Source: a virus
Lineage: Duplodnaviria; Heunggongvirae; Uroviricota; Caudoviricetes
Direction: 5' to 3' (one strand)
Length of the DNA: 18,346 bases
IMG/VR virus record: IMGVR_UViG_2531839178_000019
Coordinates: 1 to 18,346 of that record
In this document: piece by piece, positions 1 through 18,346 of the stretch
Layout: each line of letters begins with the position of its first letter
Numbering within the stretch: position 1 is the first letter of the stretch
Translations under genes and position numbers: made by a program
Notes under the pieces: model-generated
Databases searched by the model: none
Seen by the model: only the letters and a program-made list of their open reading frames with translations
Told to the model about the DNA's origin: nothing

Positions 1-378
1 TTACTCAACGTCAAACGCCCGAATTGAAGCCAAATCATCCAGACCGCTCAGCTCCTCTTTCATTTCACGCTGACGGCGATAAATCTCGTCATTGCGCTCA
101 ACCTGTGCCTGAGCCATTGCTGCCGCCAGTTCTTCCAGTTCCGGCATCGACAGTTTCACCTGCTGATTATCCGCATCACTCCACACCATATGTGTTTGTG
201 CCGCGACAGATTTTGCCAGCATGACCACCGGGGACAGGCGGCCCAGTGAGTCGGGGCCAGCATTCCAGATACGACCGTTCCATTCAAACGTGAACGGCTT
301 CGCCTCCTGTTCTGTGCGCCATGCTTCAATTTCCTGACGCCTGGCCTCTCTGGCCGCTTCCAGCATTTCTGGTGTCAC
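1..378 (-). CDS. Putative tail fiber assembly (chaperone)-like protein, C-terminal reading frame; the probable N-terminal segment lies upstream (about 503-563) in another frame
   Basis: ORF ends with TAA at 1-3. It sits directly downstream of the side tail fiber gene, where tfa lies in lambda. No Shine-Dalgarno precedes the in-frame GTG (376-378) or ATG (364-366), whereas the neighbouring frame has GAGGAA-N6-GTG at 561-563. The two frames meet at a 7-nt homopolymer at 496-502. Confidence 0.45.
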   Translation of the reverse strand: MTPEMLEAAREARRQEIEAWRTEQEAKPFTFEWNGRIWNAGPDSLGRLSPVVMLAKSVAAQTHMVWSDADNQQVKLSMPELEELAAAMAQAQVERNDEIYRRQREMKEELSGLDDLASIRAFDVE

Positions 379-2719: not shown

Positions 2720-5700
2720 TCAGCTAATCGTGATGCCTGCAGTGGCTTTCTTCATCACAACAACCAGCAAATCGCTGATACTTGCTGTGGGATACCAGCC
2801 ATTTACCAGCCATGCCGATACAGAAAACTCCAGCGTCATGTGACCGTGACCGGCAGGCATATCAATAACACCCGTATATATCAGCGTATTATCCAGGGTC
2901 GTTCGGTTATAAATTTCGGCACCGTTTTTCTTCACTATCAGGCGGCATGACGAATAAATATTGTTATTCTTCCGCTCATGTTTAGCACCGCGAAACGCCA
3001 CCGCGGGAATAACAATTTGCCGATCAAACGGCTGATCGTCATAAACCCTGACGGTAATGGTCCCTGATGGCCACCTCTCCGGTGCCCGGGAGTCCCGTGG
3101 GAAAGGTTTGCCCACTGTTTTAACGAGATCGCCTTCAATCTGGTTCGCGGACAATTTTCCCAGAACCCGACAGTTCTTATTAATCGTGACGTTGTTGAGC
3201 GTCCCGGAGTTCGCGTTCACGTTACCGCTGATATCGGCATTTTTCGCCGTCAGCCGTCCGCCAGGTGTCAGGGAAAATGCCGGAGGATTACCGCCGCTGG
3301 TAATGGTCGGAGCCGTCAGGCGTTTCAGGAACACGTCGTTCATGAATATCTGATCGCCCTGACCAACAAACATCGGCTTTGTGTTGCCATTCGCAGGATT
3401 AATCATCGCAATCCTGTCTGCCGCCAGCAGCACCTGACTCTGCATTCCTGCTGGCGTATTCTCAATACCGGCACCGATACCCGCAATATAAAGGCGTCCG
3501 TCCTTCATCTGTTGCAGCTTCACAGCCCACATGCTGTTCAGGTTATTATTTGTATCAACCTGAACTTTCTGTATCTGCTGGATTGCAGCACTCTGATTTT
3601 CCAGTTTTTTATTGACGGTTTGCGTGATTTCATTGCTGACATTCGTAATGGACGTCCTGATTTCAGTCAGGTCCGGCGCAAGCTGACCGTTATCAATCTG
3701 CGTCCACAACTCCTTGCCGAGATGCGTTTTATTGATCAACCCTTTATAAAAACTCAGATAACCTTCCGCATCATCGCTCGCCCGACCGACGGCCTCCACA
3801 AATGCCGATTTGCCAACGGTGTTCACACTGCGAACGTAAAAATAATAATCATGGCCCGGCCTGATATTGATACTGGCGGCTATCCAGTACAGCGCCGTGC
3901 CAAGATAGCGGGCGCTGGTTTCAACCTGCCTGATATCCGAAATCCGCTTTTCCGAAAACCAGAACTCAAACTGCACCGTCGGGTCATATACAGCCAGTTT
4001 CGGGACCGCCGTTATCTGAAAATACCCCGGTATCAGTTCAATAGTGACAGGCGCTGCCGGTGCCGCAATCCGGAACGATACCGACGCCGGATCGCCCTGC
4101 TGCCCCCGGGCATTTACCGCCCGGACTGTCAGACTGTAATTCCCCAGCGCCAGCTGCCTGAAGCGGTATGTGGTTTCCGTCGTCCTGGCTGTGCTGACCA
4201 GCCGCTCACTGCCGTCGTCCGCTGCCACGGTCAGGCGAAGCAGGAAGCTCACACCCTTCACCACCTTCGGCGTGTCCCATCGCGCCAGCACCTGATATTC
4301 CCCGCTGTCTGCGGTGACTTCGGCGGTCAGATGCTGCACCGCTGGCGGCGTGACACCATTCACCGTGCCGCGCCGGTCACCGTCAAAGTGTGCCCCGTTA
4401 TCCACGATGGCCTCTTTTTCCGGCACATGCTGCACGGCGGTGATGGCATACGTGCCGTCGTCGTTCTCACGGATACTCACGCAGCGGAACAGGCGCTGGC
4501 GCAGCGTCGGCAGCTTCAGCCCCCACACGCTGTATTCTGCAACGCCGTCAGGAACCCGGCTCACTTTCACCTTCACGCCGTCGGTGACGGACTGAACCTC
4601 CACGCTGACCGGATTGCCATTTCCGTCAACCAGGCTTATCAGCGTGGTACCGGAGGACGGCAGCGTGATTTCACGGTCGAGCGTCAGCGTCCGGGTCTGG
4701 CTGTTCACCGCCAGTACGCGACCACCAGTGCTGATACCGGCATAATCATCATCGCAGATTTCAATGACATCACCCGGTACATGGCGAAGCCCTTCTGCGC
4801 CCACGCTGAAGTCCACGGTCTGCGTTTCCAGCAGTTCCGTTTTAATCAGCCACAGCCCGGCGCGGTGCGCCTGTCCCCGGCTGGTACAGCCAAAGGCATC
4901 CATCTTCGTGACGTTACGACCGTAACGGACAATGGCCTGCGTGTCCTCCACAAGCTCTGTCGCCGTCTCATGACCGTTGTCCGGATCAATCCAGTTCACC
5001 TCAACGACATTATGGCGGTCCTTCAGGGCGCTGAAGCTGTAGCGGAACGGCGCGCCATCATCCGGCATCACCACATTACTGCGGTTATAGGTCCACACTT
5101 TATCCGACGGTCGGTCCTGCACGAACGTCAGCGTCTGCCCGTTCCATACCGGCATACAGCGCATCGCCGAGCAGAAATCACTGAGAACATCCCACGCCTT
5201 ACGCTGTGTGGTCAGGTAAGCGTTACAGGTGATGCGCGGCTCCGTGCCGCCAAATCCGTCCGGCACTGACTGGTCGCAGTACTGGCCGATGACATACAGC
5301 GCCCATTTGTCCACATCTGCCGCACCAAGACGTTTCCCCATGCCGTAGCGCGGATGAGTGAGCATGTCCCACAGACACCAGGCCATGTTGTTGCTGTATG
5401 CTGGCTTAAGCGTTCCGTCCCAGATACCGCTGTATTGCCGCGTCTGCGGGTTATAGTTCGACGGCACCTGCAGAATGCGCCCGCGAAGATGATAATTGCG
5501 ACTCACCTGCTGGTTACCGAACTGCTCTGAATCCACCTGCACGCCGACCAGCGCCGTGTTCGGGTAGCACTGTTTCACATCGATGATTTCGGTGTACGAC
5601 GACCAGAGCGTTTTGTTCTGCAGCTGGTCTGTGGTGCTGTCCGGTGTCATCCTGCGCATCCGGATATTAAACGGGCGCGGCGGCAGGTTACCCACCACCA

Positions 5701-6199
5701 CCGAGGCCAGATACTGCGAAGTGGTTTTGCCCTTAATGGTGATGTCTTTTTCCGTCACCCAGCCACCGTTACGCTGTATCTGAACCAGCAGGCGGACTTC
5801 CGACGGATTCCGGTCCCCCTTTGAGGTGGTTTCCACCAGTGCCTGCACACCGAAGGTCAGGCGCAGACGATCAATGTTTGCCGACGTGATGGTCCTGGTG
5901 ATCGGCGTGTCGTATTTCACTTCCGTACCCAGCACAGTCTCTGAGCCGGAAGATTCAAACCCCTCCGGCGGTGTCTGCTCCTGCTCGCCGGCGCGGAACA
6001 CCACCGTAACACCGGAAAAGTTTGTCTTCCCCTCGCTGTCCAGGACCGGCGTACCGTTCAGCAGCACGCTTTTTAATCCATCCACCGGACCGTCAACCGG
6101 CCCTTCGCTGATGGCATCAATCACACTCAGCAACTGCGTGGATTTCAGGTTGTCCTTCGCTTCGCGCGGGGTATGCCCCTTACTGCTGCCTTTACCCAT
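2720..6199 (-). CDS. J: Tail tip / host specificity protein J (central tail fiber)
   Basis: 1159-aa ORF. N-terminus [34 protein letters not shown]... and most of the first ~950 aa match lambda J as recalled; the C-terminal ~200 aa diverge. RBS GAGG upstream of ATG 6197-6199. Confidence 0.95.
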
Positions 6200-6213
6200 T
6201 CCTCACGCTCCAT

Positions 6214-6240
6214 AAACGACAAAACCGCCCGCAGGCGGTT
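6214..6240 (-). terminator. Hairpin with U-rich tail in the I-J intergenic spacer (possible attenuator)
   Basis: 7-bp inverted repeat aaccgcc (6223-6229) / ggcggtt (6234-6240) with a 4-nt loop; the minus-strand transcript continues UUGUCGUUU. Confidence 0.3.
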
Positions 6241-6259
6241 TCACATAAAACATTTTGCA

Positions 6260-6901
6260 TCAGCGACCAATCACCACAACCTGACCACCATCCCCTTCGT
6301 CTGCCGTGCTGATCTCCTGAGATACCACCCGCGACCCCACGCGCATTTCACCGTACAGAACAGGCAGAACATTGCCCTGGGCAACCATGTTATCCAGTGA
6401 GGAGAAACAGGTGTTCTGTTTGCCGTTATCCGTTGTCTGTGTACGGGGAGTTCTGGCTTTCGGTGCCAGCATCTGTGCAACACCGCCAAGCGTCATACTG
6501 GCACCGAGAGAAAACAGCAGATTACTCGCCATAATTCCTACCCCCGGCATCCATATAGCAACCGCCATAACAGCTGCCCCCAGCACCGCCTGAAACACAC
6601 CGCCACTTTTAGCTCCCACCAGACGCGGTACTATGTGGATCACTGCACCATTTGCCAGCGGCTCATTAAGACGGGCAGACAATTCGGTTTCACCTGCATC
6701 ACGCCCGGCAATGCGCACCTGATACCAGCCGTCACTCAGTTTCTGACGAAACGCCGGGAGCTGTGTGGCCAGTGCGCGGATGGCTTCAGCCCCCGTTTTC
6801 ACACGAAGGTCGATGCGGCGGCCAAATCGTTGCAAATCCCCGTAAAGGCAGATGCGTGCCATTCCCGGTGACGCCAGAGGGAGTGTGTGCGTCGCTGCCA
6901 T
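6260..6901 (-). CDS. I: Tail tip assembly protein I
   Basis: 213-aa ORF whose N-terminus (MAATHTLPLASPGMARICLYGDLQRFGRRIDLRVKTGAEAIRALATQLPAFRQKLSDGWYQVRIAGRD) and C-terminus are near-identical to lambda I as recalled. Its 5' end overlaps the 3' end of K in another frame. Confidence 0.95.
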   Translation of the reverse strand: MAATHTLPLASPGMARICLYGDLQRFGRRIDLRVKTGAEAIRALATQLPAFRQKLSDGWYQVRIAGRDAGETELSARLNEPLANGAVIHIVPRLVGAKSGGVFQAVLGAAVMAVAIWMPGVGIMASNLLFSLGASMTLGGVAQMLAPKARTPRTQTTDNGKQNTCFSSLDNMVAQGNVLPVLYGEMRVGSRVVSQEISTADEGDGGQVVVIGR

Positions 6902-7542
6902 TTGTCGGTATACCTCTCTCGTTTACTCAGTTGTTCAGGAATATGGTGCAGCAGCTCACCATCGCCGCAGTAAATGGCGGCATGATTCGGCACCGATGAA
7001 CCAAAACAGCACAGCAGCACATCGCCCGGTTGTGCTGATGACAACGGCACCTGATACAGCCCTGTGGCCTCCAGATTATCCAGATAGAGATTCTGACCGT
7101 GACGCCACCAGTCATCCCCGCGATGAAAATCCGGCATCTCAATCCCCGCCAGATGATAAGCATCCCGGAACAGCGTGTAACAGTCCGTCACCCCGTGCTC
7201 AAAGCGCCGCCCGGTGAGATGCGGCACACAGCGGAACTTGTGAATCGCCCCCCGGCAGACCAGCCACCACGGCAAATCACTCTGCACCTGCAGCCGCCGG
7301 TCAGCCTCACTCAGCCAGGGCAGACCACCGGGATGACTGTGGACCAGTGCCACAATCTCACCCTGCATTTGTGCCCGCAGCCAGTCCTCCGGAGCCATCC
7401 GGAACCGTTCCTCCGGCTCACCGGAGATATTCTCGCTGGGAAGATACCTGTCTCCCTCCGGCGTTCTCACCACGAAGCCACACGACTCCGCTGGCGCACA
7501 TCGCCGGGCGTGCGCCAGAATCGCTGATTCTGTCTGTGTCAT
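6799..7542 (-). CDS. K: Tail tip assembly protein K (JAB/MPN and NlpC/P60-like domains)
   Basis: Start taken at ATG 7540-7542 (MTQTESAILAHARRCAPAESCGFVV...), 4 bp after the L stop. HSHPGG (JAB-like) and Cys/His motifs are present. The track ORF start at 7806 is an upstream non-ATG extension that would overlap L. Confidence 0.9.
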   Translation of the reverse strand: MTQTESAILAHARRCAPAESCGFVVRTPEGDRYLPSENISGEPEERFRMAPEDWLRAQMQGEIVALVHSHPGGLPWLSEADRRLQVQSDLPWWLVCRGAIHKFRCVPHLTGRRFEHGVTDCYTLFRDAYHLAGIEMPDFHRGDDWWRHGQNLYLDNLEATGLYQVPLSSAQPGDVLLCCFGSSVPNHAAIYCGDGELLHHIPEQLSKRERYTDKWQRRTHSLWRHREWHASAFTGICNDLAAASTFV

Positions 7543-7546
7543 GGAT

Positions 7547-8245
7547 TTACTGAGAAAGTTTATTGATGGAAAGGAAACCGCCGAAATTACCGGTATTGTT
7601 GCGCAACTCACACCCGCGCATACACTTGCTGCATTTGTCCTTCCGGATATCCGTCGTTGGTTTGTCGAACTCGTCAGCCACTGCCCTGCCCGTGTAACCA
7701 CACTCATCAGAACGGTAAGTCCACATACAGGTATTCGCCAGCATGATACGCCCCGGGAAAACCGCGCCATCCGTCTCCGTTGGTGTGGCCAGCACAAAAG
7801 AGGCACTGACCGCGCTCAGTTCGCTGCACTGCTCGATGCGCCAGCGGCTGATCACCTCCTGTTCCGGATCGGCGTCGCTGTTTCCGTTGACGAAGTTCAC
7901 CGCATCCAGAAAACGGGCGTAAACCTTACGCCGGACCACCGTTCCGCCGACCAGACTCTGCAGATCTTCCGCCATCCCGGTGACCATGCCGTGCAGGTTA
8001 GAGACCGTCAGTGTCGGACGGGCAGCACAGCCCCTGCCGTTCAGTTCAAACCCCGACCCCTGAATGGGGTATGCCTGATACTGCCGCCCCTGCCAGGTGA
8101 CCGGCTCACCTTTTTCGTTCTGCTCATTACAGAAAAAATAACGCTCACCACCGACCTCTGTCAGATCGATTTCCCAGAGCTCCACCCGGGCTGACTGCTC
8201 CGCACGGGTGCATTCATTCAGTGTTTCCTGCCGGATATCCTGCAT
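7547..8245 (-). CDS. L: Minor tail protein L
   Basis: 232-aa ORF, the same length as lambda L and highly similar as recalled. Its start overlaps the M stop (ATGA). Confidence 0.95.
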   Translation of the reverse strand: MQDIRQETLNECTRAEQSARVELWEIDLTEVGGERYFFCNEQNEKGEPVTWQGRQYQAYPIQGSGFELNGRGCAARPTLTVSNLHGMVTGMAEDLQSLVGGTVVRRKVYARFLDAVNFVNGNSDADPEQEVISRWRIEQCSELSAVSASFVLATPTETDGAVFPGRIMLANTCMWTYRSDECGYTGRAVADEFDKPTTDIRKDKCSKCMRGCELRNNTGNFGGFLSINKLSQ

Positions 8246-8574
8246 CAGTTCACCACCTGTTCAAAATCGGCCGTTACAGTCACCCATAACGCCCCCACGC
8301 TTGCCGACCATTTACGACAAACCACCCTGATCAGTTTCCAGTCATAAGGTGGCGTCCACTGAAATGCGCGGACGCCACCGTGCCGTTCCAGAAAGGCTTT
8401 TAAAGATGGGTGTTCACCTTTACGAACACGTATCGTCACGCTGTAAGTCGACAACTGGTTATTCAGTCCCGCCGCACGACGCTGTTCATAACCATCGCCC
8501 AGCTTCACTGTCACCACTTTCGGCTCTGATACCACATTCATATCCGGGCGCACTTTCCAGTGAAACGTCTCCAT
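8245..8574 (-). CDS. M: Minor tail protein M
   Basis: 109-aa ORF matching lambda M in length and sequence (…GDGY.QR…FEQVVN). Its ATG shares one base with the H stop codon (TAATG). Confidence 0.95.
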   Translation of the reverse strand: METFHWKVRPDMNVVSEPKVVTVKLGDGYEQRRAAGLNNQLSTYSVTIRVRKGEHPSLKAFLERHGGVRAFQWTPPYDWKLIRVVCRKWSASVGALWVTVTADFEQVVN

Positions 8575-11500
8575 TACCGGTATGCTCCACTTAACCGGCC
8601 ACCATCACGGGCCTGCTGTTGCATAAAGTCCGCGGCCGCTTTTTTCCCGAGGTCATAAACCACCTTCAGGGCAGCCGGACCTATCTGCCCGTTCGTGCCG
8701 TCGTTATTGATCTCAATGTTGTACTGCGGGGCAAACATCACCATGCCTGAACCACCAGTATCCGCCACAACCCCCAGCTTACCATCAGCACCGCGACGCA
8801 GTGGCAGAATGGCTTCAGGTCCCGCTTCCCCCATCACACCCGCGCCTTTTGCAAAAGCAAAAAACGTCGGACGGTTAACCACCGTGCCACTGTAGCGACT
8901 CAAATCAGCAGACTGGTAAACACCGCCATCAGCATTAGTCGTGAAGCCGAATAAAGAACCGACGCCCTTTACCGCCTGCATCATGGCCATCTGTGCCATA
9001 ATTCTGGCCATATCTGACAACAGGGAAGAGGTGAAGGATTTAAAATTCAGCTTACCGGTGGTACAGAATGTCGCCAGTGCATTACCGGCACTGCTGAATG
9101 CCACTGTAAACATCTGTTCTGCCGTTCCCGCCGCATTATCCGCATCCGCCGTAAAATTCTGAAACGCCCGCATGGCACCGTTTTTCCAGTCGCCCTGCGC
9201 CACTTCCAGTTCCTGCCAGTAGCGTTTGTTTTCATTCAGTTGTCGCTTCAGGCTCCCCTTCAGCACCTCCTCAGCCCTCCGGTAGTCCTCCGTCCCGTAA
9301 GTGCCTTTCTGGCGACTGTCATTCTCAAGCTGTTGCAACTGTTGCCGGTATTCCTGCCGGATGCGCAACTGTGCCTGGTAGCGCTGCCGCTGCTTATCCC
9401 CCATACCTGCAGTGGCAATATCCAGATTGTGCTGCTCACGCAGTGCACGTTCTTTGTCTGCCAGCTGGCTGGTCAGCTGAACCGTTTTTTTCTCAGGTCG
9501 TTAAGCGCTGTCTGTTTCTGCAGCTCCTGCTGTTTCACATCCAGCAGCGTCAGCGCCTGAATCAGCTCATTCTTACGGGCCAGCACACTCTTTTCATCTG
9601 CCGTCAGCTTTTTCCCGTCCAGGTCGCTGATGCGCTGCTGCAGGGCCAGAAGCTGTTTATGCGCTTCAGTCATCCTTTCAGTGGCAATGCCTGCTGACTG
9701 TCTGGCAGCAGCAATCTGCCCTTCCACCTGTGCCTGCTGCTGACTGTACTGCAGCAATAACCGGGTGGCCTCATCATTACGGGTTGCCCGTGTATTTTTC
9801 TTAATGGCTTTTTCGTAACGTTCATTTTCACGCTGTATCGCCGCATCCCTGACAGCCTGGTCGGCGTACTGCATGGCATTAATACGCGCAATTTCCCGCT
9901 GATGTCGTGCAGCTTCCGTTTCATTCATCCGGTTCAGCGCGGCATTTTCAGCATTCCGGCGTTTCTGTTGCTCCTGGTAATTCCGTTCTGCCTGCGCTTT
10001 TGCATCCTGCAAATCCTTCCGGCGTTTTTTCTCCTGAAGATCGTTAAGACGCTGCTGATCGTACTCCACCTGTGTGGAGGCGTTTGTCCACGGATATTTT
10101 TTCGCGCGCTGAATTTTTTCCTGTAACGCATCAATCTGCGCATCCAGCGAGTCTTCACGACCAATATTCATGGCCGCATCCCAGAACTGCTTCCACCAGT
10201 CAGACAAGGTTTGCAGCGTACTACCCAGCGCATTGAGATTATTATCAATATCAGATGTGCGTTTACCGGTTTCCTCTGCCAGCGCAGACATGGCGATCCG
10301 GGCCGCATCACTGGACCGCCCCTGCTCCCCAAGGACGCGTATCTGCTCAAGCTGAGTGGCAGTCAAAAAATGCAGCGCATTGTCCAGCGCCTTCGCGGCA
10401 TTTACAGGATCATCCTTCAGCCGCTTAAACTGATTTATGGTATCGCTGACCGACTGGCCAACCGATCGCTCCATCTGTGCGGCAGCTTTCGCCACCATAC
10501 CAATATCGTTTCCATGAAATGCCCCACTGCCCACCACCTGTGCCAGCGCACCGGCTGCCGCATGTTGCGTGATACCATTCCCGGATATGGCCCGGCTGAG
10601 TTTCCACAACTGCCCGACAGTGACACCGGCATAATGTCCCGTCAGCGCCAGCTGACGGTTAAATTCCTCGCCCTCCTTCCGGCCGTCATGCCAGGCTTTA
10701 CCCAGACCCAGGACCGCCGCGACAAGTCCGCCAATAACGCCGCCAGTCATCATGCCTTTCGGCGACATCAGTGCGCCTGTCCATCCGGCACGGTTAGCCA
10801 GCGTTATCCCGGATCCCCTCAGCGCACCAAAATTGCCGCGCGCCATCTGACTGATTAACACCCCCAGCTCCCGCCGGGCTGCCGCACTTTTCAGCCCCAG
10901 CGAATGTGTGGCTTTTCCTGCCCGCTCCATTTTGCGGATATACACTTCTGCAGCACTGCTTACCCCCAGCTGAGCCGCCCTGGCGCGAAGCAACTCAGAA
11001 GACGACAGATTCTGGCGGGTTGCCTGCTCTTTAAGCTGGCGGATAAACGCCGCTTTCTGCCGGGTGGCCTGTTCCTCTGCCTGCGTCAGGGCACGGGTTT
11101 TCGCCGTGATCTCCGAAATCAGCGCCAGATAATCCTGCTGACCAACCCCGCCACTGTTTCTGGCCTGTCGGATCTGCTGCTGAATACGCTGTAATTCCTG
11201 AAGCCCCGCACCGGCCTGTTTCACACTGTCAATCTGGCGATAAAAGGCGGCAGCCGCTTTATCCTGCGCCTCCGCCAGTGCCCTGGCCTGCGCCTGTTCC
11301 TCGCGCATTTTCTGATTCAGGGCATCCACGCGCAGACGGGTTTGTTCCACCTCACGGGCCATGCGTTCATGAGCCCGTGCATTCTTCTCCACCGTCTGCG
11401 CATGGGCTGATGCTGCTGTTGCAGCCGAAGAAGCCGCCTGCATTGTCTGCCGGGCCGCCTGAGTCTGACGCTCCATAAAACGCTGCATACGGGCAGAAGA

Positions 11501-11614
11501 CCGTTCTGCATCGCTGGCTGCACCATTCAGAAGGTTTTTGATACGGGGAATTTCATTTTTAAACTCTGCCGCATCAATCCCCAAATCAATGACCAGGTTG
11601 GCTATCTGGTCCAT
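8574..11614 (-). pseudogene. H: Tail tape measure protein H, reading frame interrupted at an A7 tract (coding strand; plus-strand T7 at 9485-9491)
   Basis: N-terminal ORF from ATG 11612-11614 (MDQIANLVIDLGIDAAEF..., RBS GGAGGTG) stops at 9473-9475. The C-terminal 276-aa ORF (8574-9404) ends ...NNDGTNGQIGPAALKVVYD..., matching the lambda H C-terminus as recalled, and its frame is open upstream back to 9500. The two frames meet exactly at the A7 run. Confidence 0.85.
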
Positions 11615-11915
11615 AACGCACACCTCCGGAAATACCTTCCCCAAGATGCATCAGTTCTTCGTCCGTTCGCTCCGGTATCCCGTTCTCTTCCGGTAAAAGG
11701 CTGAAATCAGCCACCGCAGCATCGCTGCTGCCGGACACCATTCTCACGATCAATGCCTTCAGCGAGGCAAACTGCGCATCCATCCACACATCACTGAAGC
11801 TCTGCATCCGGAAATAATCGCCCCACTCACCAAGCTCAGTGGCCGACATATCCGACAGCATCCGCCGCCAGTCTGCCCGCCGGAACTCCCGGGCAAGCCG
11901 CATGACAAACTGCAT
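11586..11915 (-). CDS. T: Tail assembly protein T, the -1 frame extension expressed as the G-T fusion
   Basis: 109-aa ORF in the -1 frame relative to G; its frame is open upstream to 11948 and overlaps the G 3' end. G-T-H gene order as in lambda. Confidence 0.8.
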   Translation of the reverse strand: MQFVMRLAREFRRADWRRMLSDMSATELGEWGDYFRMQSFSDVWMDAQFASLKALIVRMVSGSSDAAVADFSLLPEENGIPERTDEELMHLGEGISGGVRYGPDSQPGH

Positions 11916-11923
11916 TTCCCGCG

Positions 11924-12310
11924 TCAGGACTTTTCCGGCGTCAGCGCCTCATGATCATCATCCCCGGCATTCTCAATGGTCCCCATACCGCTCAGCGACA
12001 GAACCCTCTCCGCCCCCGCGCCCAGCGCATCATACGACCATGTTGTCATAATGGATGCGCAAAGCGTCTCAACATCCTGAGACTGCTCAGCATTCCACAG
12101 TGAGCGGGAAACCAGCCAGGCATTGATATCCATTCCCATACGCAGAAAAGCAATCTGTCGTTCAGCCTCCGGCAGTTCTCCCTCCTGTGCATCAAACTTT
12201 GCCGTTCGCTGCTGAACAAACGTCAGATATTCAATTCTCTGCAGCCCGGACAGCTCACTGAGCACCACGGACTGTTTTTCATAATTAAACGTATCCTGTT
12301 TCAGAAACAT
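11924..12310 (-). CDS. G: Tail assembly chaperone G
   Basis: Start taken at ATG 12308-12310 (MFLKQDTF...SELSGLQRIEYL), resembling the lambda G N-terminus (MFLK...SELSALQRIEHL) as recalled. GGAG lies 6 nt upstream. Confidence 0.85.
   Translation of the reverse strand: MFLKQDTFNYEKQSVVLSELSGLQRIEYLTFVQQRTAKFDAQEGELPEAERQIAFLRMGMDINAWLVSRSLWNAEQSQDVETLCASIMTTWSYDALGAGAERVLSLSGMGTIENAGDDDHEALTPEKS
11930..11936 (-). other. Putative -1 ribosomal frameshift site for the G-T fusion (coding strand G_GAA_AAG)
   Basis: This is the only slippage-prone sequence inside the 33-nt G/T frame overlap (11916-11948). The lambda site recalled is G_GGA_AAG. Confidence 0.5.
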
Positions 12311-12325
12311 CATGTTCTCCGGATG

Positions 12326-12349
12326 CAAAAAGCCCCGGATAACCGGGGC
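12326..12349 (-). terminator. Rho-independent terminator/attenuator between V and G (minus-strand RNA GCCCCGG-UUAU-CCGGGGC followed by UUUUU)
   Basis: Perfect 7-bp GC-rich inverted repeat (12332-12338 / 12343-12349) with an A-run at 12327-12331 on the plus strand. Confidence 0.65.
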
Positions 12350-12368
12350 AATGATGAGTATCGTCCTG

Positions 12369-13052
12369 TTATGGTGCGCTGACGGTCACCGCAGCCACTG
12401 CCACAAACTCTCCGTCAGAGGTCATGCCCACGATGCTGACACTGCCCTGCTTCACGCCTTTCACCGTGGCCACAAGCCCGCTCAGGGTCACCGAAGCAGT
12501 CTGAGGATCTGACGAATGCACACTGATCGCTTTGACACTGACAGATGCCGGTGCCACCGTCAGTCCGGTAACACCCACGGTTTCAGCGCCCTCCTCTGCC
12601 AGATACGGACGCCCCACACCGCTGATTTTTACAGTACGGGTCATCACCTCTTTTGAGGTAATGGTTTTACCCAGAGAACTCAGCCAGCCACGGAAAACAT
12701 CAACCGTACCGTTGGGGTATTTGATACGAAACGCGCAGACTTCACCGGAATCGAACAACTGAACCAGTTTTTTCTGCCCGCTGTCACCCGGACGCCAGGC
12801 CAGCGTCGCCAAAGTATCACCGACGGATTTCTGCCCCTGGGTTGTCGTTTTCCAGTCTGCATCTTCATCATCGAGATAAGTGTCATCTTCTGCATCAGCG
12901 GTCATTTCGCCAGGTTGCAGATCCTTCACCATCGCAAGACGCAGCCAGTCAGTGTCCGACAAAGGGTTCGCAAACGCATCGCCCTTGCCGGTGTACATCC
13001 AGAACGTCGTTCCCGCACCTTTCGTTTTTGCCAGTGGATTTGGTGTGGTCAT
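12369..13052 (-). CDS. V: Major tail protein V
   Basis: Start taken at ATG 13050-13052 (MTTPNPLAKTKGAGTTFWMYTGKGDAFANPLSDTDW...), homologous to lambda V as recalled. Strong RBS AAGGAGGT 6 nt upstream. The track start at 13127 is an upstream extension overlapping U. Confidence 0.92.
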   Translation of the reverse strand: MTTPNPLAKTKGAGTTFWMYTGKGDAFANPLSDTDWLRLAMVKDLQPGEMTADAEDDTYLDDEDADWKTTTQGQKSVGDTLATLAWRPGDSGQKKLVQLFDSGEVCAFRIKYPNGTVDVFRGWLSSLGKTITSKEVMTRTVKISGVGRPYLAEEGAETVGVTGLTVAPASVSVKAISVHSSDPQTASVTLSGLVATVKGVKQGSVSIVGMTSDGEFVAVAAVTVSAP

Positions 13053-13062
13053 TGCCACCTCC

Positions 13063-13476
13063 TTAATTCGTGTACGTGATCTGGTACGTGATTTCCGCCA
13101 TCGCCCAGGTGGCCATCTCATTATCACGTTGATAGTTAAAACCGAGTGGGTTCATGGTGTCGATGAGTCCGGAAAATGCAGGTACATCATTCAGGGCCGG
13201 GAAAATGGTGCTCTCCATCCACATATCCAGCTCTGAATCCGGTGCCTGTGCCCGGATGAAGACGGCAATATGCAGAACAGCCTGCCAGTCATCTTCATCC
13301 GTCATTTTTCCGGTGTACTGAGCATCACTCAGCCACACCGCCACGGCAGGCAGTTCCTGCGCATCAATAAATGCCGGAAGCCCGTCAAAAAACGTGGCGC
13401 TGTCTCCACACTGTTCCCGAAGGCGTGCCAGTACGACCTGGCGGATCTGTGTATGTCGGTTCATCGGGTCAGCCAT
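13063..13476 (-). CDS. U: Minor tail protein U (tail terminator)
   Basis: 137-aa ORF with ...ATFFDG.PA..D..E.PAVAV.L....YTG......W...LHI.VF..AQ.PDSELD.WMES..., matching lambda U as recalled. Confidence 0.9.
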   Translation of the reverse strand: MADPMNRHTQIRQVVLARLREQCGDSATFFDGLPAFIDAQELPAVAVWLSDAQYTGKMTDEDDWQAVLHIAVFIRAQAPDSELDMWMESTIFPALNDVPAFSGLIDTMNPLGFNYQRDNEMATWAMAEITYQITYTN

Positions 13477-14045
13477 AACCTCAGTTGTTGTTTCAGTGCA
13501 TACCCCAGCTGTTTCGGCATTTCCGCAGCAATGATGCGGTCGCGGGCATCTTCAAATGCCTGTGTCAGCGGTCCGGACAGCGGGATTTTCACCACATCAA
13601 TGGGGTAACGATTTTTGCCGTCAATACGCCGCATCACATGCCAGCGACCATTCGCCAGTTGCTGAATAAACGCATCCCGGAAAAGGTATTTCCCCACTTT
13701 CAGTACGCTGCCACGATGACGTGAGTTGCTGCCATGCCGGGAGCGGGCCAGTCTGACCTGTGCGGTACCCAGCTTAATGGCGGGCAGGTTACCCCGGTTA
13801 ACACGCATGCGGGCATACATTTTTCCTGAGGGGCTGGCTTTAAGCAGCCTGACACGCTCCCTGACCGTTTTCAGGGGAATACCTTTCACCTGGTTATCCC
13901 CGGCAACGGTATTCTGCGCAACCTGCCGTGTGGCGACAGAAATAATCTTTGCCGCCACACGGTTTACCGCCCATGCGCTGGCCTGTGGCACCATGCGGGT
14001 ATCGAGGCTGTTCAGATTATGGATGGCATTCTCAAGCCCCTTCAT
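13461..14045 (-). CDS. Z: Tail completion protein Z
   Basis: 194-aa ORF (MKGLENAIHNL...FIQQLANGRWHVMRRIDGKNRYPIDVVKIP...LGYAL), homologous to lambda Z as recalled. RBS AGAGGTG. Overlaps the U start. Confidence 0.85.
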   Translation of the reverse strand: MKGLENAIHNLNSLDTRMVPQASAWAVNRVAAKIISVATRQVAQNTVAGDNQVKGIPLKTVRERVRLLKASPSGKMYARMRVNRGNLPAIKLGTAQVRLARSRHGSNSRHRGSVLKVGKYLFRDAFIQQLANGRWHVMRRIDGKNRYPIDVVKIPLSGPLTQAFEDARDRIIAAEMPKQLGYALKQQLRLWLTR

Positions 14046-14056
14046 CCCACACCTCT

Positions 14057-14332
14057 TTACTCAATAAAGATCATTGGTTTACCGTTAAAGCGTTCATGCC
14101 GTGTGACCGTCCATTGTTGTCCGTCATAAACAACGCGGTCCCCGCGCCGTGGGCGGTATCCCGAAGAAAACACCACCAGAGAGACCGCCGGTCCGGACAG
14201 AGCGTTCAGCTCTGCCAGAGTTTCTCCCGGGAGCACAGGCATATAAACATCATTAATCGAGGCCATCTTTCCCATCTTTCTGACCGTGATCGCATCCATA
14301 CGCGCTGCCTGCCGGGAAAAGGGATCAGACAT
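14057..14332 (-). CDS. Head-tail joining protein (FII-like)
   Basis: 91-aa ORF directly upstream of Z; the C-terminal segment ...RRGDRVVYDGQQWTVTRH... resembles the lambda FII ...RRGDTLTIGEENFWVDRV... region as recalled. Confidence 0.6.
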   Translation of the reverse strand: MSDPFSRQAARMDAITVRKMGKMASINDVYMPVLPGETLAELNALSGPAVSLVVFSSGYRPRRGDRVVYDGQQWTVTRHERFNGKPMIFIE

Positions 14333-14648
14333 TGAGTTTTACCGGCACTTCTTCTGCACCAGCTCCGGCATCTGCCCAGACAACCCCGACCAGCGGATCA
14401 GAGCCGCTGTTAGTCAGCTGAACTTTTCCGGACTTCAGAAAAACCTTCTTACCCGTTTTCATGTCATCCGTTTTCAGCTTAGGCAGCATAAACACACCTT
14501 CGGTCAGGCCGTCGCCTGTTTCACCCTGTGGAATATCGGTCAGCGCCACCGCAAAAACATCACCCACCTGCACCAGATCTCCGCTGCTGATGGCTGCACT
14601 GGCAACAATCGCCACCGTTTTTCCTTCTTCTACAAAATTCTTTGCCAT
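14325..14648 (-). CDS. DUF2190-like phage structural protein (possible head decoration/cement)
   Basis: Start taken at ATG 14646-14648 (MAKNFVEEGKTVAIV...), GGAGA 5 nt upstream. Size (~107 aa), the Gly/Val-rich pattern and position next to the capsid gene fit this family. The track start at 14693 is an upstream extension. Confidence 0.6.
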   Translation of the reverse strand: MAKNFVEEGKTVAIVASAAISSGDLVQVGDVFAVALTDIPQGETGDGLTEGVFMLPKLKTDDMKTGKKVFLKSGKVQLTNSGSDPLVGVVWADAGAGAEEVPVKLNV

Positions 14649-14691
14649 AACTGTCTCCGCACAGCCCCGTTCAGGGGCTGATTTCAGGTAC

Positions 14692-14710
14692 AAAAAAAGC
14701 CCTTACGGGC
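14692..14710 (-). terminator. Hairpin (GCCC-GUAA-GGGC) followed by U7 downstream of the capsid gene; a second 6-bp hairpin (14664-14680) follows without a U-tract
   Basis: Short GC stem with a GNRA-type loop at 14699-14710 and an A7 run at 14692-14698 on the plus strand; lies between the capsid stop (14735) and the next start (14648). Confidence 0.45.
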
Positions 14711-14734
14711 CATCAGAGTTGTTGTCTGCGACGT

Positions 14735-16535
14735 TTACGCCGTACATTTCACCAGGCCGCGGTGATCAACTGGCGCAACACCGGCGTCAATACGCACTTT
14801 CGTTGTCACGCCATCCACACTGAAGCCCTCCATCTGATCAATATATGGCGTATCCACACCGTTGAGATAAGCCACTTCAATCGTATCGGAGCCTTTGGAC
14901 GCAGCCAGGTAGAAGGTGGTCTGGCTGTTATCATCAAGACGAGGCTCTGCAATAACGGTCGCAAAATCTTTCACCGGGTTAATAATACCGGCGTTAATGT
15001 CAGCCCCCTTGACACTTGAGGAGCGAATGACCTGGTTAGCAACAGACTCCATCGCCGTCGGTACCAGTACGAACGCAGGACGAATATTCAGATGACGCTC
15101 CCCCTCTTTCTGAACACGCATCAACTGGCGGGCTTTATCCAGCGATGCCACGTCCATTGCAGCGCTCTCCAGTACGTTTGCATGTTTCGCTTTATCGAAC
15201 AGACTTACATTATCTGTGGAGATTTTCGGGTTAGACGTCAGAATGGCATAAACCAGATCGGCAATAGTGGATTTCGCCGCACGGCCCAGTTTCATCGGGA
15301 CATCGGTCAGCATATTCAGATCATCGTTGATAATGGCCTGACGGGTGATACTGAACAGTTCACCATAGGTCGCCAGTGCAATCGTGGCCTGTTTATCTCC
15401 GGTAGTAACGTATTTATATTCCGCCCCTTCACGCACCTGACGCAGAGCACTGAAGCCCCCCATACCCACACGATGGGCAATTTTAAAATCAGACAGCTGA
15501 CCTTTCCGCGTCCACTGTTCATAGGTTTCAGGGGCATCTTCCCAGCCCTGCAGAATGGCTTTGTTCGCAACATCCAGCAGAATATTACCGAAGTCAGACG
15601 TACTGTGTGTGAACGCCGCACCGACCATCTGCATCGGGTTATAACCGGAAACCCCAATACCCCGTTCAGTCAGTGACATACGGGCATATTCACGCAGGGT
15701 CATCCCGTTGTAGACATTATCACGTTCAGTTTTTTCAAACCCGGCACGCGCCATCAGCGCCTGGCGGATCCCGTCCCCCACAAAATTACCGTTTCCGGCA
15801 TAAATATGGGCCGGGGTATTTTTATTTGATGGTGAAAATTCCTTACCCATTTCGTTAAGTAATTTCTCACGGGCCTGCTCAAGCGAGCACTCCGGCTCGG
15901 AAAGACAACTGGCCTGCAATGTCTGATAACGCCCGCCAAACATACCAAACAGTTCATTAATACCACTCACACGTGCTTTTTGCTCTGCCAGTACCTGCGC
16001 ACGGATACTGCTTTCATCTGCGGAAGGTGCATTTGTGGTGGTCACGGTTGTGGCAACCTGAGCCGTAGTCTGCTCCTGTGTCTGAGATGCAGTATTTTTG
16101 TTTTCAGGTTCACGCGTTGCACTGTTGCGTGGCGGAGTAATCATGTTTCGAATGGATTCCGGCATCTTTTTAAATTCCTCTGTACGTTTTGACTGAATAC
16201 ATGCCATTGCCTTAACGGCTGGCGTCACCTGATCAGCAAATCCATGTGCCAGACATTCGGCACCGGACATCCAGGTCTCATCCGCCAGCATGGCAGCAAC
16301 TTCATCGGTGGTTTTCCCGGTTTTCTGTGCATAAGCGGGTAACAGAACCGCCTCAACTTTATCGAGCAGGTCGGCATAGGTGCGCATGTCCTCCGCATCA
16401 CCGCCCGTAAAGCCAAATGGTTTATGAATCATCATGAAGGTGTTTTCCGGCATAATGACCGGGTTTCCCACCATCGCAATGACCGACGCCATTGATGCCG
16501 CCACACCGTCAACATAAACGGTAATGGACGCACCA
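14735..16535 (-). CDS. Prohead protease (ClpP/S49-like, C-terminal part) - scaffold linker - major capsid protein fusion; 5' end truncated by IS600
   Basis: Long ORF with the peptidase motif ...VYVDGVAASMASVIAMVG... near its 5' end, a Thr/Gln-rich linker and a capsid-like C-terminal domain. The reading frame runs upstream into the IS600 terminal sequence, so the track start at 16561 is a GTG inside the IS. Confidence 0.6.
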
Positions 16536-16862
16536 TGAGGTAGCCTGAGTTTAACGGACACTCCTTCCTGAAATAGAATGGCATCAGAAGGAGCTAATAA
16601 TGAGCAGAAAAACCCAACGTTACTCTAAAGAGTTCAAAGCCGAAGCTGTCAGAACGGTTCTTGAAAATCAACTTTCGATCAGTGAAGGCGCTTCCCGATT
16701 ATCCCTTCCTGAAGGCACTTTAGGACAATGGGTTGCCGCCGCCAGAAAAGGGCTCGGTACTCCTGGTTCCCGCACGGTGGCTGAACTGGAATCTGAAATT
16801 CTGCAACTGCGTAAGGCGTTAAATGAAGCTCGCCTTGAGCGAGATATATTAAAAAAAGCAAC
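16536..16862 (+). mobile_element. IS600-like (IS3 family) element, left ~327 bp only, interrupted by IS30
   Basis: Begins TGAGGTAGCCTGAG... about 64 bp before the orfA ATG (16600-16602), a layout typical of IS3-family left ends. The orfA product MSRKTQRYSKEFKAEAVRTVLENQLSISEGASRLSLPEGTLGQWV... matches IS600 OrfA as recalled. The left boundary is approximate. Confidence 0.7.
16600..16862 (+). pseudogene. IS600 orfA, 5' fragment (first ~88 codons), truncated by the IS30 insertion
   Basis: The helix-turn-helix OrfA sequence stops making sense after ...LERDILKKAT at the IS30 terminus (16863); the track ORF to 16950 reads through into the IS30 inverted repeat. Confidence 0.8.
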
Positions 16863-18083
16863 TGTAGATTCAATCTGTCAATGCAACACCCCTTTCAATT
16901 ATCTCTTTCGGTGTTTTGAACTTCAGTGTCTTTCTCGGTCTGTTGTTTAGCTGAGCAGCAACCAGATCTAGTTCATGTTGAGTATATTGGGCAAGACATG
17001 TCTTTTTAGGAAAGTACTGCCGAATTAGCCCATTTGTGTTCTCATTTGTTCCCCGCTGCCAAGGACTCTGAGGATCGCAGAAGTAAACTTTAACGCCGGT
17101 GCTGACAGTAAATTCTAGATGTCTGGCCAGTTCCATTCCTCTGTCCCATGTCAGCGATTTTCTGAGTTCTGACGGTAAACTCAGGAATTTGTCGGTAAGA
17201 GCCTGATTTACTGAGACAGTAATCTTTGCCCCTGAGTCTAAGGATGATCGTATAACGTGATTTTCGGTCTACAAGTGTGGCTATATGAGAGTTTTTGTAC
17301 CTGAGACTAAATCGCCCTCCCAATGCCCCAGAGAGCGTCTGTTATCGATATTTCGGGAACGTTCGTGAATTGGTGTTCCGTTCACTATGTTAATCGTACC
17401 TCTTTCGCCTTTGCGGGTATGACGCCTGCCATGGCGAAGGCTATGCGACCGTCGCAGATGCTGTATATTCAGGTGGTGTAGCGCTTCACGGCTACGAAAG
17501 TACAGCGTTTTATAAATTGTCTCAGGTGATATTCGCAGCGTTTTTTGACGTGGTTTTGTTCGCCTTAACCATCCTGATATTTGCTCTGGAGACCATTTCA
17601 TCTCCAGCTTTTCCAGAACAAGCTTTCGCAATGGTAAATTTTGATCCAGTAAGCACGGTTTTGGCCTTTTCGCCATTCTGTTGGCTCGGTTATTAGCATC
17701 AACAGCTTTGTAATAGCGTCTGCCCCGATTACGCTGAACTTCACGTGAGATCGTCGAAGGACTGCGATTCAGCGCAGTAGCTATCGCACGAATGCTCATT
17801 TTGGCTGACAAACCAGCTCGTATCTCCTCGCGCTCAGACAGTGTCAGGTGAGCTACAGCCCGCTTACGCTCATGGGGTTTTATGCCGCCAGTATCCCTTA
17901 ACATAGTGAAGATCGTTCCGGGTTTTGAACCCAGGATATTCGCTATTTCACTGAAGCCTGTTCCGTTCTTCCATAGTTCAAAAACAGAGGCTTTTTCCTC
18001 TGCTGTAAATGTTCGTCTCATTCAAAAAACCTCCGCGACCCCATGTTTTCACATAACTGTTGCGTTGACCAATTGAATCTACA
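16863..18083 (-). mobile_element. IS30, complete length (1221 bp) with imperfect ~25-bp terminal inverted repeats
   Basis: Termini TGTAGATTCAATCTGTCAATGCAAC (16863-16887) and reverse complement of 18059-18083, TGTAGATTCAATTGGTCAACGCAAC. Encodes an IS30-family DDE transposase on the minus strand. Confidence 0.9.
16870..18021 (-). pseudogene. insI: IS30 transposase, split into three ORFs by two compensating 1-bp indels
   Basis: ORFs 17281-18021 (MRRTFTAEEKASVFELWKNGTGF..., HTH), 17090-17323 (...NSHIATLVDRKSRYTIILRLRGKD...) and 16870-17136 (MELARHLEF...DPQSPWQRGTNENTNGLIRQYFPK...) together read as one IS30 transposase as recalled. Frame changes occur near the T5 run at 17292-17296 and near 17220. 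Confidence 0.8.
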
Positions 18084-18346
18084 GTTGCTTTTTTAATATA
18101 TCTCGCTCAAGGCGAGCTTCATTTAACGCCTTACGCAGTTGCAGAATTTCAGATTCCAGTTCAGCCACCGTGCGGGAGCCAGGGGTACCGAGCCCTTTTT
18201 CTGGCGGCGGTAACCCATTGTCCTAAAGTGCCTTCAGGAAGGGATAATCGGGAAGCGCCTTCACTGATCGAAAGTTGATTTTCAAGAACCGTTCTGACAG
18301 CTTCGGCTTTGAACTCTTTAGAGTAACGTTGGGTTTTTCTGCTCAT
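18084..18346 (-). mobile_element. Second IS600-like fragment (orfA 5' part) in inverted orientation, continuing beyond the window; orfA frameshifted
   Basis: Reverse complement of 18084-18346 is identical to 16600-16862 except for 3 substitutions and one extra A (A5 versus A4), which shifts the orfA frame after ...WVTAARK. The orfA ATG is at 18344-18346. Confidence 0.8.

Follow-up and report, generated by a model that had tools for sequence, protein, structure and literature searches.

The window analyzed here is an 18,346-nucleotide stretch (IMG/VR record IMGVR_UViG_2531839178_000019) that carries prophage genes and ends in an IS30 element lying between two inverted copies of the 5' part of IS600. 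A simple insertion of IS30 into IS600 should be followed by the directly oriented remainder of IS600 and leave a 2-bp target duplication; a sequence-only reading of this DNA had presumed as much, and this is what is found at loci L001, L008, L009–L015 and L017, all of them simple insertions bounded by AC...AC. How, then, did the window come by a mirrored right flank? The same reading had proposed recombination between two copies, an intramolecular IS30 event, or a chimeric assembly. The set was the right one, though no choice was made among its members, and we do not decide here between the two leading explanations: an assembly or strand-switch chimera, which we put tentatively in first place at a probability of roughly 0.45, and a genuine rearrangement, which we regard as possible but somewhat less probable. 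The lineage concerned is IS-rich and Shigella/EIEC-like, with ipaH-like genes following the prophages and abundant IS600.

Anatomy of the nested insertion

The structure is a nested insertion, in which IS600 (IS3 family) entered the protease/capsid gene of a prophage and IS30 subsequently entered the orfA frameshift window of IS600 (Table 1). An intact homologue of the interrupted gene is annotated in FDAARGOS_944. BLAST against the complete IS600 of locus L001 aligned the left arm with IS600 positions 1–327 on the plus strand (99.4% identity), from IRL (TGAGGTAGCC...) to ...ATATTAAAAAAAGCAAC, and the right arm with positions 65–327 on the minus strand (98.1%). Identities of 98–99% in both arms, together with the A7G run, identify the element as IS600, and the Pfam family HTH_Tnp_1 matches orfA-derived products at related loci. 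The two arms form an inverted repeat of 263 bp with 98% identity, far above chance.

Table 1. Features of the IS600–IS30–IS600 structure and the adjoining capsid gene, in window coordinates
Feature	Position	Strand	Remarks
Prophage ClpP-like prohead protease/major capsid fusion gene, 3' part (~600 codons)	14735..16535	-	Cut off by IS600
Left arm, IS600 1-327	16536..16862	+	IRL from 16536, orfA start 16600; ends within orfA/orfB frameshift window
Half-site of IS30 insertion, ATATTAAAAAAAGCAAC	16846..16862	+	Slippery A7G run of IS600 (16851-16858) plus 4 nt
Complete IS30, 1221 bp	16863..18083	-	IRL 16863-16888, IRR 18058-18083; transposase frame broken
Truncated IS30 transposase ORF, 246 aa	17281..18021	-	Product of T5 allele
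Right arm, IS600 positions 327 to 65, inverted	18084..18346	-	Begins GTTGCTTTTTTAATAT (T6); orfA frameshifted by A5, 61-aa ORF

With AC at the end of the left flank and GT at the start of the right one, there is no 2-bp direct target duplication. What follows IS30 is the inverted IS600 5' arm and not the IS600 3' part, which is absent from the window; the locus is thus not a simple IS30 insertion. Both arms stop at the frameshift-window half-site and face IS30 with no direct repeat, which are the features of a K-12-type relic of IS30 between inverted IS3-family 5' arms (compare L002, L003, L018 and L019). The arm matches and the AC...GT flanks bear out the earlier description of IS30 between inverted IS600 5' copies without a direct duplication. 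Its breakpoints, 16862 on the left and 18084 on the right, were also correct, but the flanks are not exact reverse complements, the left ending in GATATATTAAAAAAAGCAAC (A7) and the right beginning with GTTGCTTTTTTAATATATC (T6). The k-mer AAAAAAAGCAACTGTAGATTCAATCTGTCAATG spans the junction between the IS600 5' arm and IS30 IRL, hereafter X|IRL.

The first codon of the window is a stop and the last is a start, the right arm ending exactly at the orfA ATG. The window was therefore cut at gene boundaries, and the end of the right arm is not necessarily the end of the contig. The capsid/IS600 junction had no exact match among viral, genome or metagenome contigs; neither the 116-aa product of the left-junction ORF nor the 61-aa product of the right-arm ORF is on record in exact form, and the type-A read-through protein contexts (cluster representative P0008) comprise only short contigs ending within IS30.

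The arms differ by three substitutions, at IS600 positions 200, 226 and 232, as had been reported, but by two single-base homopolymer indels (A4/A5 at position 211 and A7/A6 at 316) where one had been counted. A trivially mirrored contig, which the sequence-only reading had considered less likely, is indeed excluded, the reason being not the arm differences but the complete and asymmetric 1221-bp IS30 between the arms; a perfect palindrome would in addition not have arms that differ at five positions. As evidence for two IS600 copies the arm differences are weak, since both indels lie in homopolymers and two more homopolymer frameshifts occur in phage genes of the window. The best full-length match to the right arm among 5,426 complete E. 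coli genomes is the IS600 adjoining a related prophage in FDAARGOS_944 (99.2%), and the right-arm variants 232C and A6 are natural IS600 alleles. Of the four substitutions in the IS part, three are transitions at third codon positions and synonymous (codon positions assigned by hand).

The IS30 copy and its recurrent target

The 1221-bp element is 99.6% identical to K-12/J53 IS30, and homologous copies are annotated "IS30-like element IS30 family transposase." Its 26-bp terminal inverted repeats match at 23 of 26 positions, the first 12 being identical; the IS30-specific bases just inside the tips are CTGTCAATG at IRL and TTGGTCAACG at IRR. In place of an intact 383-aa transposase there are ORFs of 246, 77 and 88 aa. 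Two changes relative to canonical IS30 break the frame, an additional T at 17220 and T5 for T6 at 17291, and these may reflect either real decay or sequencing error. The T5 allele also occurs in L007–L016, and an identical 246-aa product is on record in 361 collection blocks at several different loci; the additional T is private, with no exact match in genome or metagenome contigs. Another variant, 17155C, is a natural allele, present also in pRM11911. The very rare 18037G, 47 bp from the IRR tip, is shared only with the IS30 of the sister locus L017 described below and occurs at none of 7,210 IS30 places in 5,426 complete E. coli genomes (best match there, 99.1%).

IS30 has inserted at the A6-7G frameshift window of IS600 orfA. 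The same IS600 position is occupied by IS30 in L001, L002, L008, L017 and L018, the homologous position of IS911/ISEc52-like elements in L003, L007, L016, L019 and L034, and that of a third IS3-family element in L002. On the basis of this recurrent position, in at least 10 distinct loci, three IS3-family elements and both orientations, the site is a hot spot, and the IS3-family frameshift window is a dominant natural target of IS30; in complete E. coli genomes, about one IS30 copy in five lies between inverted IS3-family arms. A 24-bp symmetric consensus has been described for IS30 hot spots (Olasz et al. 1998, as cited in PMC12445084).

Several known loci resemble the window in part. At the CP4-6 locus of E. 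coli K-12, IS30 likewise lies between two inverted IS3-family 5' arms, each broken at the frameshift window, and no 2-bp direct repeat is present. Its right-hand junction, where IRR meets an inverted IS600 arm of 327 bp (IRR|GTTGCTTTTTTTAATATATCTCGC...), is shared with the window. In the K-12 annotation this region is insN/insI/insO. Unlike the window, CP4-6 has an IS911/ISEc52-like left arm, an IS600 arm with T7 rather than T6, and an intact IS30; it is old and conserved, its junction (IRR|X') being present in 1276 complete genomes, whereas the window version has two IS600 arms. An IS cluster adjacent to cobU in E. coli (for example in EJN001 and Sanji) consists of an IS600 5' arm joined to IRL, IS30, and the inverted 5' arm of a different IS3-family element, broken at the homologous position; S. 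dysenteriae ATCC 12039 and STEC506 have plasmids with this architecture. The X|IRL junction is found in 167 complete genomes. The arms of the cobU, S. dysenteriae and STEC506 structures are heterologous, which makes a fold-back origin impossible there, whereas those of the window derive from the same element. Simple IS600::IS30 insertions (the sister GCA_002968135.1, JNEC-KY203, CP017840.1 and the iuc-island loci L009–L015) use the same IS600 position but, unlike the window, carry the 2-bp AC duplication and continue into the 3' part of IS600 without inversion.

The arrangement with two IS600 arms was found nowhere else searched: complete E. coli genomes, plasmids and phage records yielded no second instance of an IS600 arm, IS30 and an inverted IS600 arm. 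Among complete E. coli genomes the sole 93% match was JNEC-KY203, in which a second IS600, inverted, adjoins a simple insertion.

The sister locus and the origin of the right flank

The nearest genome, GCA_002968135.1 (L017), shows a single difference from the window across 11.8 kb of prophage, of which it carries two near-identical copies. It encodes an identical 608-aa truncated capsid product and has IS600 at the same insertion site, and the 5' part of the capsid gene lies beyond IS600::IS30. The 3-bp target duplication of IS600, CCA, can be seen in the sister alone, whose copy retains both ends of the element. The sister thus shares with the window the IS600 copy, the capsid gene and the rare 18037G. 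Its IS30 is a simple insertion of the form X|IRR ... IRL|AC|Y, in which a 2-bp AC duplication leads into the remainder of IS600, still directly oriented; the orientation of this IS30 to the capsid-side arm is the reverse of that in the window. The corresponding junctions are AAAAAAAGCAACTGTAGATTCAATTGGTCAACG (X|IRR) and GACAGATTGAATCTACAACAGCGTATTTTGC (IRL|AC|Y).

Window positions 16863–18346 are the reverse complement of the IS600 arm and IS30 of the sister. Differences between the two sequences number 8 in the 1.8-kb IS part, 14 in a patch at 88–340, and one in the 13.8 kb from 2919 to 16734. The left arm differs from the sister arm at one position (200, A>G, T46A) and the right arm at four. 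Two phage genes that are intact in the sister are frameshifted in the window by homopolymers one base shorter: A7 in place of A8 at 495 breaks the gene for tail-fibre assembly, and T7 in place of T8 at 9484 the tape-measure gene. This T7 allele is also found in FDAARGOS_944.

Our tentative preference is that the mirrored flank stems from an assembly or strand-switch chimera and is not a genomic junction at the capsid locus; that the switch occurred during sequencing or assembly, and not in the cell, is the part we infer. Starting in the capsid gene, the contig would pass along the IS600 5' arm, enter IS30 by the wrong end, cross it, and exit via an IS600 5' arm read backwards. Wrong-end entry would be aided by the first 12 bases shared by the IS30 tips and by other IS600::IS30 copies, in both orientations, in the genome. 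The true locus would be as in the sister: capsid 3' part, IS600 5' arm, an opposite IS30 with its AC duplication, IS600 3' part (positions 328–1264), capsid 5' part and portal.

A collinear relative, an odd part that is the reverse complement of its neighbor, and breakpoints within repeats are what such a switch leaves, and they fit an artefact without proving one. The case is strengthened because the same IS600 in the nearest genome holds IS30 as a plain, opposite insertion, and because the reverse-complement relation extends to the rare base at 18037. Moreover, no single recombination or transposition step would turn the sister's X|IRR into the window's X|IRL, since, as derived from the pathways of PMC9333248, recombination in IS30 and the dimer reactions both preserve flank-IR junctions; homologous recombination within IS30 of the sister structure was rejected as a source on this ground. 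The differences from the sister are concentrated in repeats, and the IS30 is a mosaic of alleles (17155C as in pRM11911, T5 as in L007–L016) resembling a consensus of several repeat copies. The homopolymer-shortening frameshifts at 495 and 9484 suggest an error-prone platform, although the occurrence of the T7 tape-measure allele in FDAARGOS_944 means that not every homopolymer difference need be an error. X|IRL and IRR|X' each exist alone in nature, so that an assembler could have taken them from other loci. Against a switch of this kind, the right arm is not identical to the sister arm, and its natural alleles (232C, A6), with the mostly synonymous changes, are more in line with a different IS600 copy than with random error; both breakpoints coincide exactly with the IS30 tips, which a fold-back read arising at random would not bring about; and IS30 between inverted IS3-family 5' arms is genuine and recurrent in finished replicons. 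If the genome behind the window also has two prophage copies, the 18-kb stretch probably needed long reads, which normally cross a 1.8-kb IS structure correctly.

The leading rival is a genuine rearrangement that joined two IS600 copies at IS30 hot spots. It would start from the capsid IS600 and a second IS600 elsewhere with IS30 IRR beside its 5' arm. Work on IS30 by Olasz, Kiss and co-workers has documented (IS30)2 dimers, minicircles, hot-spot targeting and IR targeting, with intramolecular attack on a hot spot by the IRL-IRR junction giving deletions and inversions (PMC9333248). Such an attack on the capsid IS600, or else RecA-dependent recombination between opposite-orientation IS30 copies in two IS600 copies, would yield an IS600 5' arm, IS30 and an inverted 5' arm, bounded by AC...GT in place of a direct duplication; in the case of an inversion, the reciprocal product (3' arm, IS30, inverted 3' arm) would lie elsewhere. 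The dimer products resemble the window in having a single IS30, flanks from two target sites and no direct duplication, but that work concerned plasmids and K-12 chromosomes, the window has no IR-IR junction and no second IS30, and its IS30 would lack a transposase of its own if the frameshifts are real.

The heterologous-arm versions in finished sequences (K-12/J53 CP4-6 in 1276 genomes, cobU in 167, the S. dysenteriae and STEC plasmids) cannot be fold-back artefacts, and both orientations of IS30 in IS600 occur naturally. The right-arm alleles that depart from the left arm, with their best match in FDAARGOS_944, the combination of 17155C on the IRL side with 18037G on the IRR side, as from a crossover of two copies, and the IS-rich character of the lineage all argue in the same direction. 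Yet a genuine rearrangement needs independent, opposite-orientation arrivals of IS30 at this one IS600 copy in the window and sister lineages, as well as the very rare 18037G in a second IS600::IS30 copy, and the two-armed IS600 structure is missing from the replicons searched. It also leaves unexplained the excess of changes in the IS part (private 200G, the additional T at 17220, A5 and 226C) beside a near-identical prophage. Two variants were set aside: an IS30 flip by recombination between the arms after a dimer-mediated inversion, for which the arm alleles would demand a crossover in the last 11 bp, and an intra-prophage inversion via the IS600 next to KilA-N in FDAARGOS_944, as the much closer sister has no IS600 there.

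Fold-back, or inverted, chimeras occur in sequencing and assembly, and tandem inversion duplications form by template switching at short inverted repeats. In both, as in the window, sequence runs into the reverse complement of DNA close by, and the turn falls within short inverted repeats, which in the window are the tips of IS30. A typical read-level fold-back turns where a fragment ends and has no intact asymmetric spacer between its halves, whereas the spacer of the window is exactly one IS30. We consider it unlikely that such an inverted duplication formed in the cell, by a one-step switch between the IS30 terminal repeats of a sister-type insertion through replication template switching or aberrant strand transfer by IS30 transposase to the opposite strand. 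The product would be capsid gene, IS600 arm, IS30 as the loop, inverted IS600 arm and, from CCA and TGGTGCGTCCATTACCG... onward, the inverted capsid gene. This is the sole single event that converts the sister structure into that of the window, and it would account for the shared 18037G, for the reverse-complement relation and for breakpoints that fall exactly at the IS30 tips. On this origin, however, the arms and IS30 would be expected to be identical to those of the sister, and the 1.48 kb contains seven differences, including several alleles that occur naturally in other copies; large inverted duplications are also unstable without selection. Less probable still is a single IS30 insertion into a pre-existing head-to-head IS600 5' junction, which would have offered a perfectly symmetric target. 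The joined flanks, …AAAAAAAGCAAC|GTTGCTTTTTT…, do form a near-perfect palindrome, in keeping with the symmetric hot-spot consensus, but AC...GT is not the 2-bp direct repeat expected after a simple insertion. No empty palindromic junction turned up in the course of the other searches, and such a junction would itself need an unexplained earlier rearrangement.

Significance for insertion sequence biology

Whether the right flank is a chimera or a rearrangement, the locus reflects ordinary IS biology, and its significance beyond annotation is small; the K-12 reference genome already shows IS30 between inverted IS3-family arms. If the structure is an artefact, it illustrates that nested IS copies in both orientations can give contigs with mirrored flanks. 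If it is real, it would be a further case in which IS30 has rearranged IS3-family elements at the frameshift window, here in a Shigella/EIEC-like genome rich in IS elements, and would mark a deletion or inversion breakpoint within a defective prophage. Were an in-cell fold-back the true origin, it would offer one way for insertion sequences of the copy-out-paste-in type to seed fold-back duplications.

Insertion sequences at the right end of the window

The window derives from a lambdoid (mEp460-like) prophage in which insertion sequences are stacked at the right end (see table). IS30 lies between inverted copies of the IS600 5' arm, as the sequence-only reading had described; the exact complementarity that it claimed for the junction 20-mers does not hold, because three substitutions and two homopolymer indels distinguish the arms. 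The left flank ends in AAAAAAAGCAAC and the sequence beyond IS30 begins with GTTGCTTTTTT, so the element is without a 2-bp direct repeat. Compared to the canonical element, this IS30 has two substitutions and a +T/-T pair, the latter breaking the transposase frame. The first codon of the window is a stop and the last is the orfA start codon; the window cut is made at gene boundaries.

Features at the right end of the window
Feature	Coordinates	Strand	Description
ClpP-like protease/major capsid fusion gene	cut at 16535/16536	-	interrupted by IS600
Left arm	16536-16862		IS600 positions 1-327
IS30	16863-18083		full element, 1221 bp
Right arm	18084-18346		IS600 positions 327-65, inverted

A hot spot for IS30 in IS3-family elements

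The insertion point of IS30 is four bases past the slippery run (A7G) in IS600 orfA, and the identical position is taken in every retrieved IS600::IS30 copy, in both orientations. The 5' arm is joined to the left terminal inverted repeat of IS30 (IRL; type A) in JNEC-KY203, CP017840.1, and the cobU locus, and to the right one (IRR; type B) in an S. dysenteriae plasmid, the iuc-island loci (L009-L015), and the sister locus L017. The homologous position holds IS30 in IS911/ISEc52-like elements (L003, the CP4-6 locus of E. coli J53/K-12, and loci L007, L016, L019, and L034); L002 shows the same for a third member of the IS3 family. Simple IS30 insertions show the expected AC...AC duplication. The IS600 site is a hot spot; two kinds of IS30 target are described in the literature, hot spots whose consensus is symmetric and the inverted repeats of the element itself (PMC9333248; PMC12445084 citing Olasz 1998), and dimer (IRL-IRR) junctions are described as giving rise to insertions, deletions, inversions, and cointegrates (PMC9333248).

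In IS3-family orfA, the programmed-frameshift window with its A6-7G run, ATATTAAAAAA(A)G[CG]..., is a recurrent IS30 target (window 16846-16862; loci L001-L003, L005, L007-L009, L016-L019, and L034), and each strike there parts orfA from orfB. Intact IS600 copies annotated with the programmed frameshift carry A6G or A7G runs (L006 16745-18007, from FDAARGOS_944, versus window 16851-16857), so that the slippery run is polymorphic in length among apparently functional copies.

Among 5,426 complete E. coli genomes, 1276, K-12 derivatives among them, have the right-junction type, in which IRR adjoins an inverted IS600 5' arm, and 167 have the left-junction type, adjoining cobU. In J53 the order is an IS911-like 5' arm, IS30, an inverted 327-bp IS600 arm, and finally a segment from inside the IS911-like orfB; at the cobU locus, what follows on the right is an inverted 5' arm from yet a different IS3-family element, whose break lies at the corresponding position. 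One plasmid carries IS600-like sequence, IS30, and an inverted IS911 arm, and another IS911, IS30, and an inverted IS600 arm. Given these precedents in finished genomes and plasmids, IS30 between head-to-head IS3-family 5' arms is a real and recurrent architecture, and its heterologous-arm versions can only have originated by the joining of two different elements. No further case of IS600 on both sides of IS30 was found among complete E. coli genomes, plasmids, and phage records.

Of the IS30 places in complete E. coli genomes, about one fifth are enclosed by inverted 5' arms of IS3-family elements (1276 + 167 genomes versus 7,210 places). In K-12 CP4-6 (L003 3601-3930), the inverted IS600 arm stops at its own IRL, abutting internal IS911-like orfB, which implies that IS600 entered IS911 first and that an IS30-associated deletion later extended from the IS911 frameshift window to IS30. 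At the iuc-island locus, IS1 interrupts IS30 within IS600 (L012 and L015, about 8808-10803, reverse strand), giving three nesting levels in two assemblies.

The sister genome and the distribution of alleles

The nearest relative, GCA_002968135.1, was found via the 608-aa truncated capsid product (locus L017, on a 5.1-Mb contig). L017 shares the IS600 insertion, with a 3-bp duplication (CCA), and differs from the window by one base in the adjacent 11.8 kb (4736-16535; a T7/T8 run), one in the left arm, three in IS30, and four in the right arm. In L017, IS30 forms a simple insertion that points the other way, reading ...GCAAC, IRR to IRL, AC, and AGCGTATTTT..., followed by the IS600 3' part and then the capsid 5' part, portal, and terminase. 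Window 16863-18346 aligns as the reverse complement of the L017 IS600 arm plus IS30. Both IS30 copies carry 18037G, a base missing from all 7,210 IS30 places that complete E. coli genomes contain and from 14 other copies that were aligned.

Some differences are known as natural variants from other copies: T5 of IS30 occurs at many loci, 17155C is also in pRM11911, and the right arm shares A6 and 232C with an intact IS600 copy that lies next to a related prophage in FDAARGOS_944 and is the best full-length match to that arm in all complete genomes. Three of the four substitutions in the IS part are synonymous third-position transitions; by contrast, every indel except one is a change in homopolymer length. 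Differences from the sister cluster at the window ends (88-340 and 16735-18346), with one in the intervening 13.8 kb. This pattern fits either a consensus to which several repeat copies contributed or genuine recombination involving other copies.

Runs that are A8 and T8 in the sister are one base shorter at window 495 and 9484, which puts homopolymer frameshifts into the DUF4376 tail-fibre assembly gene and the tape-measure gene; the sister has both genes intact. The T7 tape-measure allele also occurs in FDAARGOS_944, whose annotation marks the gene as frameshifted. Within the tail-fibre assembly gene, window 88-340 differs by 14 substitutions from both sister prophage copies, with identical sequence on either side, reflecting either recombination from another prophage or repeat-copy mixing near the window end. 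The T5 allele at window 17291 (also in L007-L016) shortens the IS30 transposase to 246 aa, a product recorded in 361 blocks of the collection; its presence at several unrelated chromosomal loci (cobU, dcm, iuc island, hsd/mcrBC, and fhuF) indicates that an apparently dead allele is multi-copy in some lineage. The sister genome also has the tail region of this prophage in two near-identical copies (L022 at 1.93 Mb and L023 at 0.69 Mb, with 7 mismatches over 11.2 kb). They lie in opposite chromosomal orientation, an arrangement on which large inversions could act, and an ipaH-like gene (LRR_TTSS + NEL) comes after each one, a sign of a Shigella/EIEC lineage.

Origin of the mirrored flanks

Given the sister genome, an artefact is no less likely than a real event, and we lean slightly towards an assembly or sequencing chimera, with a probability of roughly 0.45. 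No single homologous or IS30-mediated event can convert the sister-type state to the arm-IRL junction of the window, because such reactions keep each flank-to-IR junction. The only single event that would do so is a strand switch between the two IS30 tips, of which the first 12 bases are identical, either in the cell or during sequencing or assembly. An artefact explains cheaply both the reverse-complement relation and the rare 18037G, but must add cross-copy mixing to account for the alleles.

A genuine two-copy rearrangement, by dimer hot-spot targeting or by recombination of oppositely oriented IS30 elements in two IS600 copies, is a somewhat less probable alternative that accounts for the flanks, for the right arm having distinct alleles, and for IS30 being a mosaic; it needs, however, independent arrival of IS30 at the same IS600 copy in two very close lineages, and the rare 18037G in another IS600::IS30 copy. 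To a genuine fold-back duplication we give little credence, and to other origins of the structure similarly little. The explanations offered by the sequence-only reading were sensible, but sequence alone does not decide among them. Whether artefact or real, the feature belongs to the well-known biology of IS30 and the IS3 family, and is therefore of low interest.
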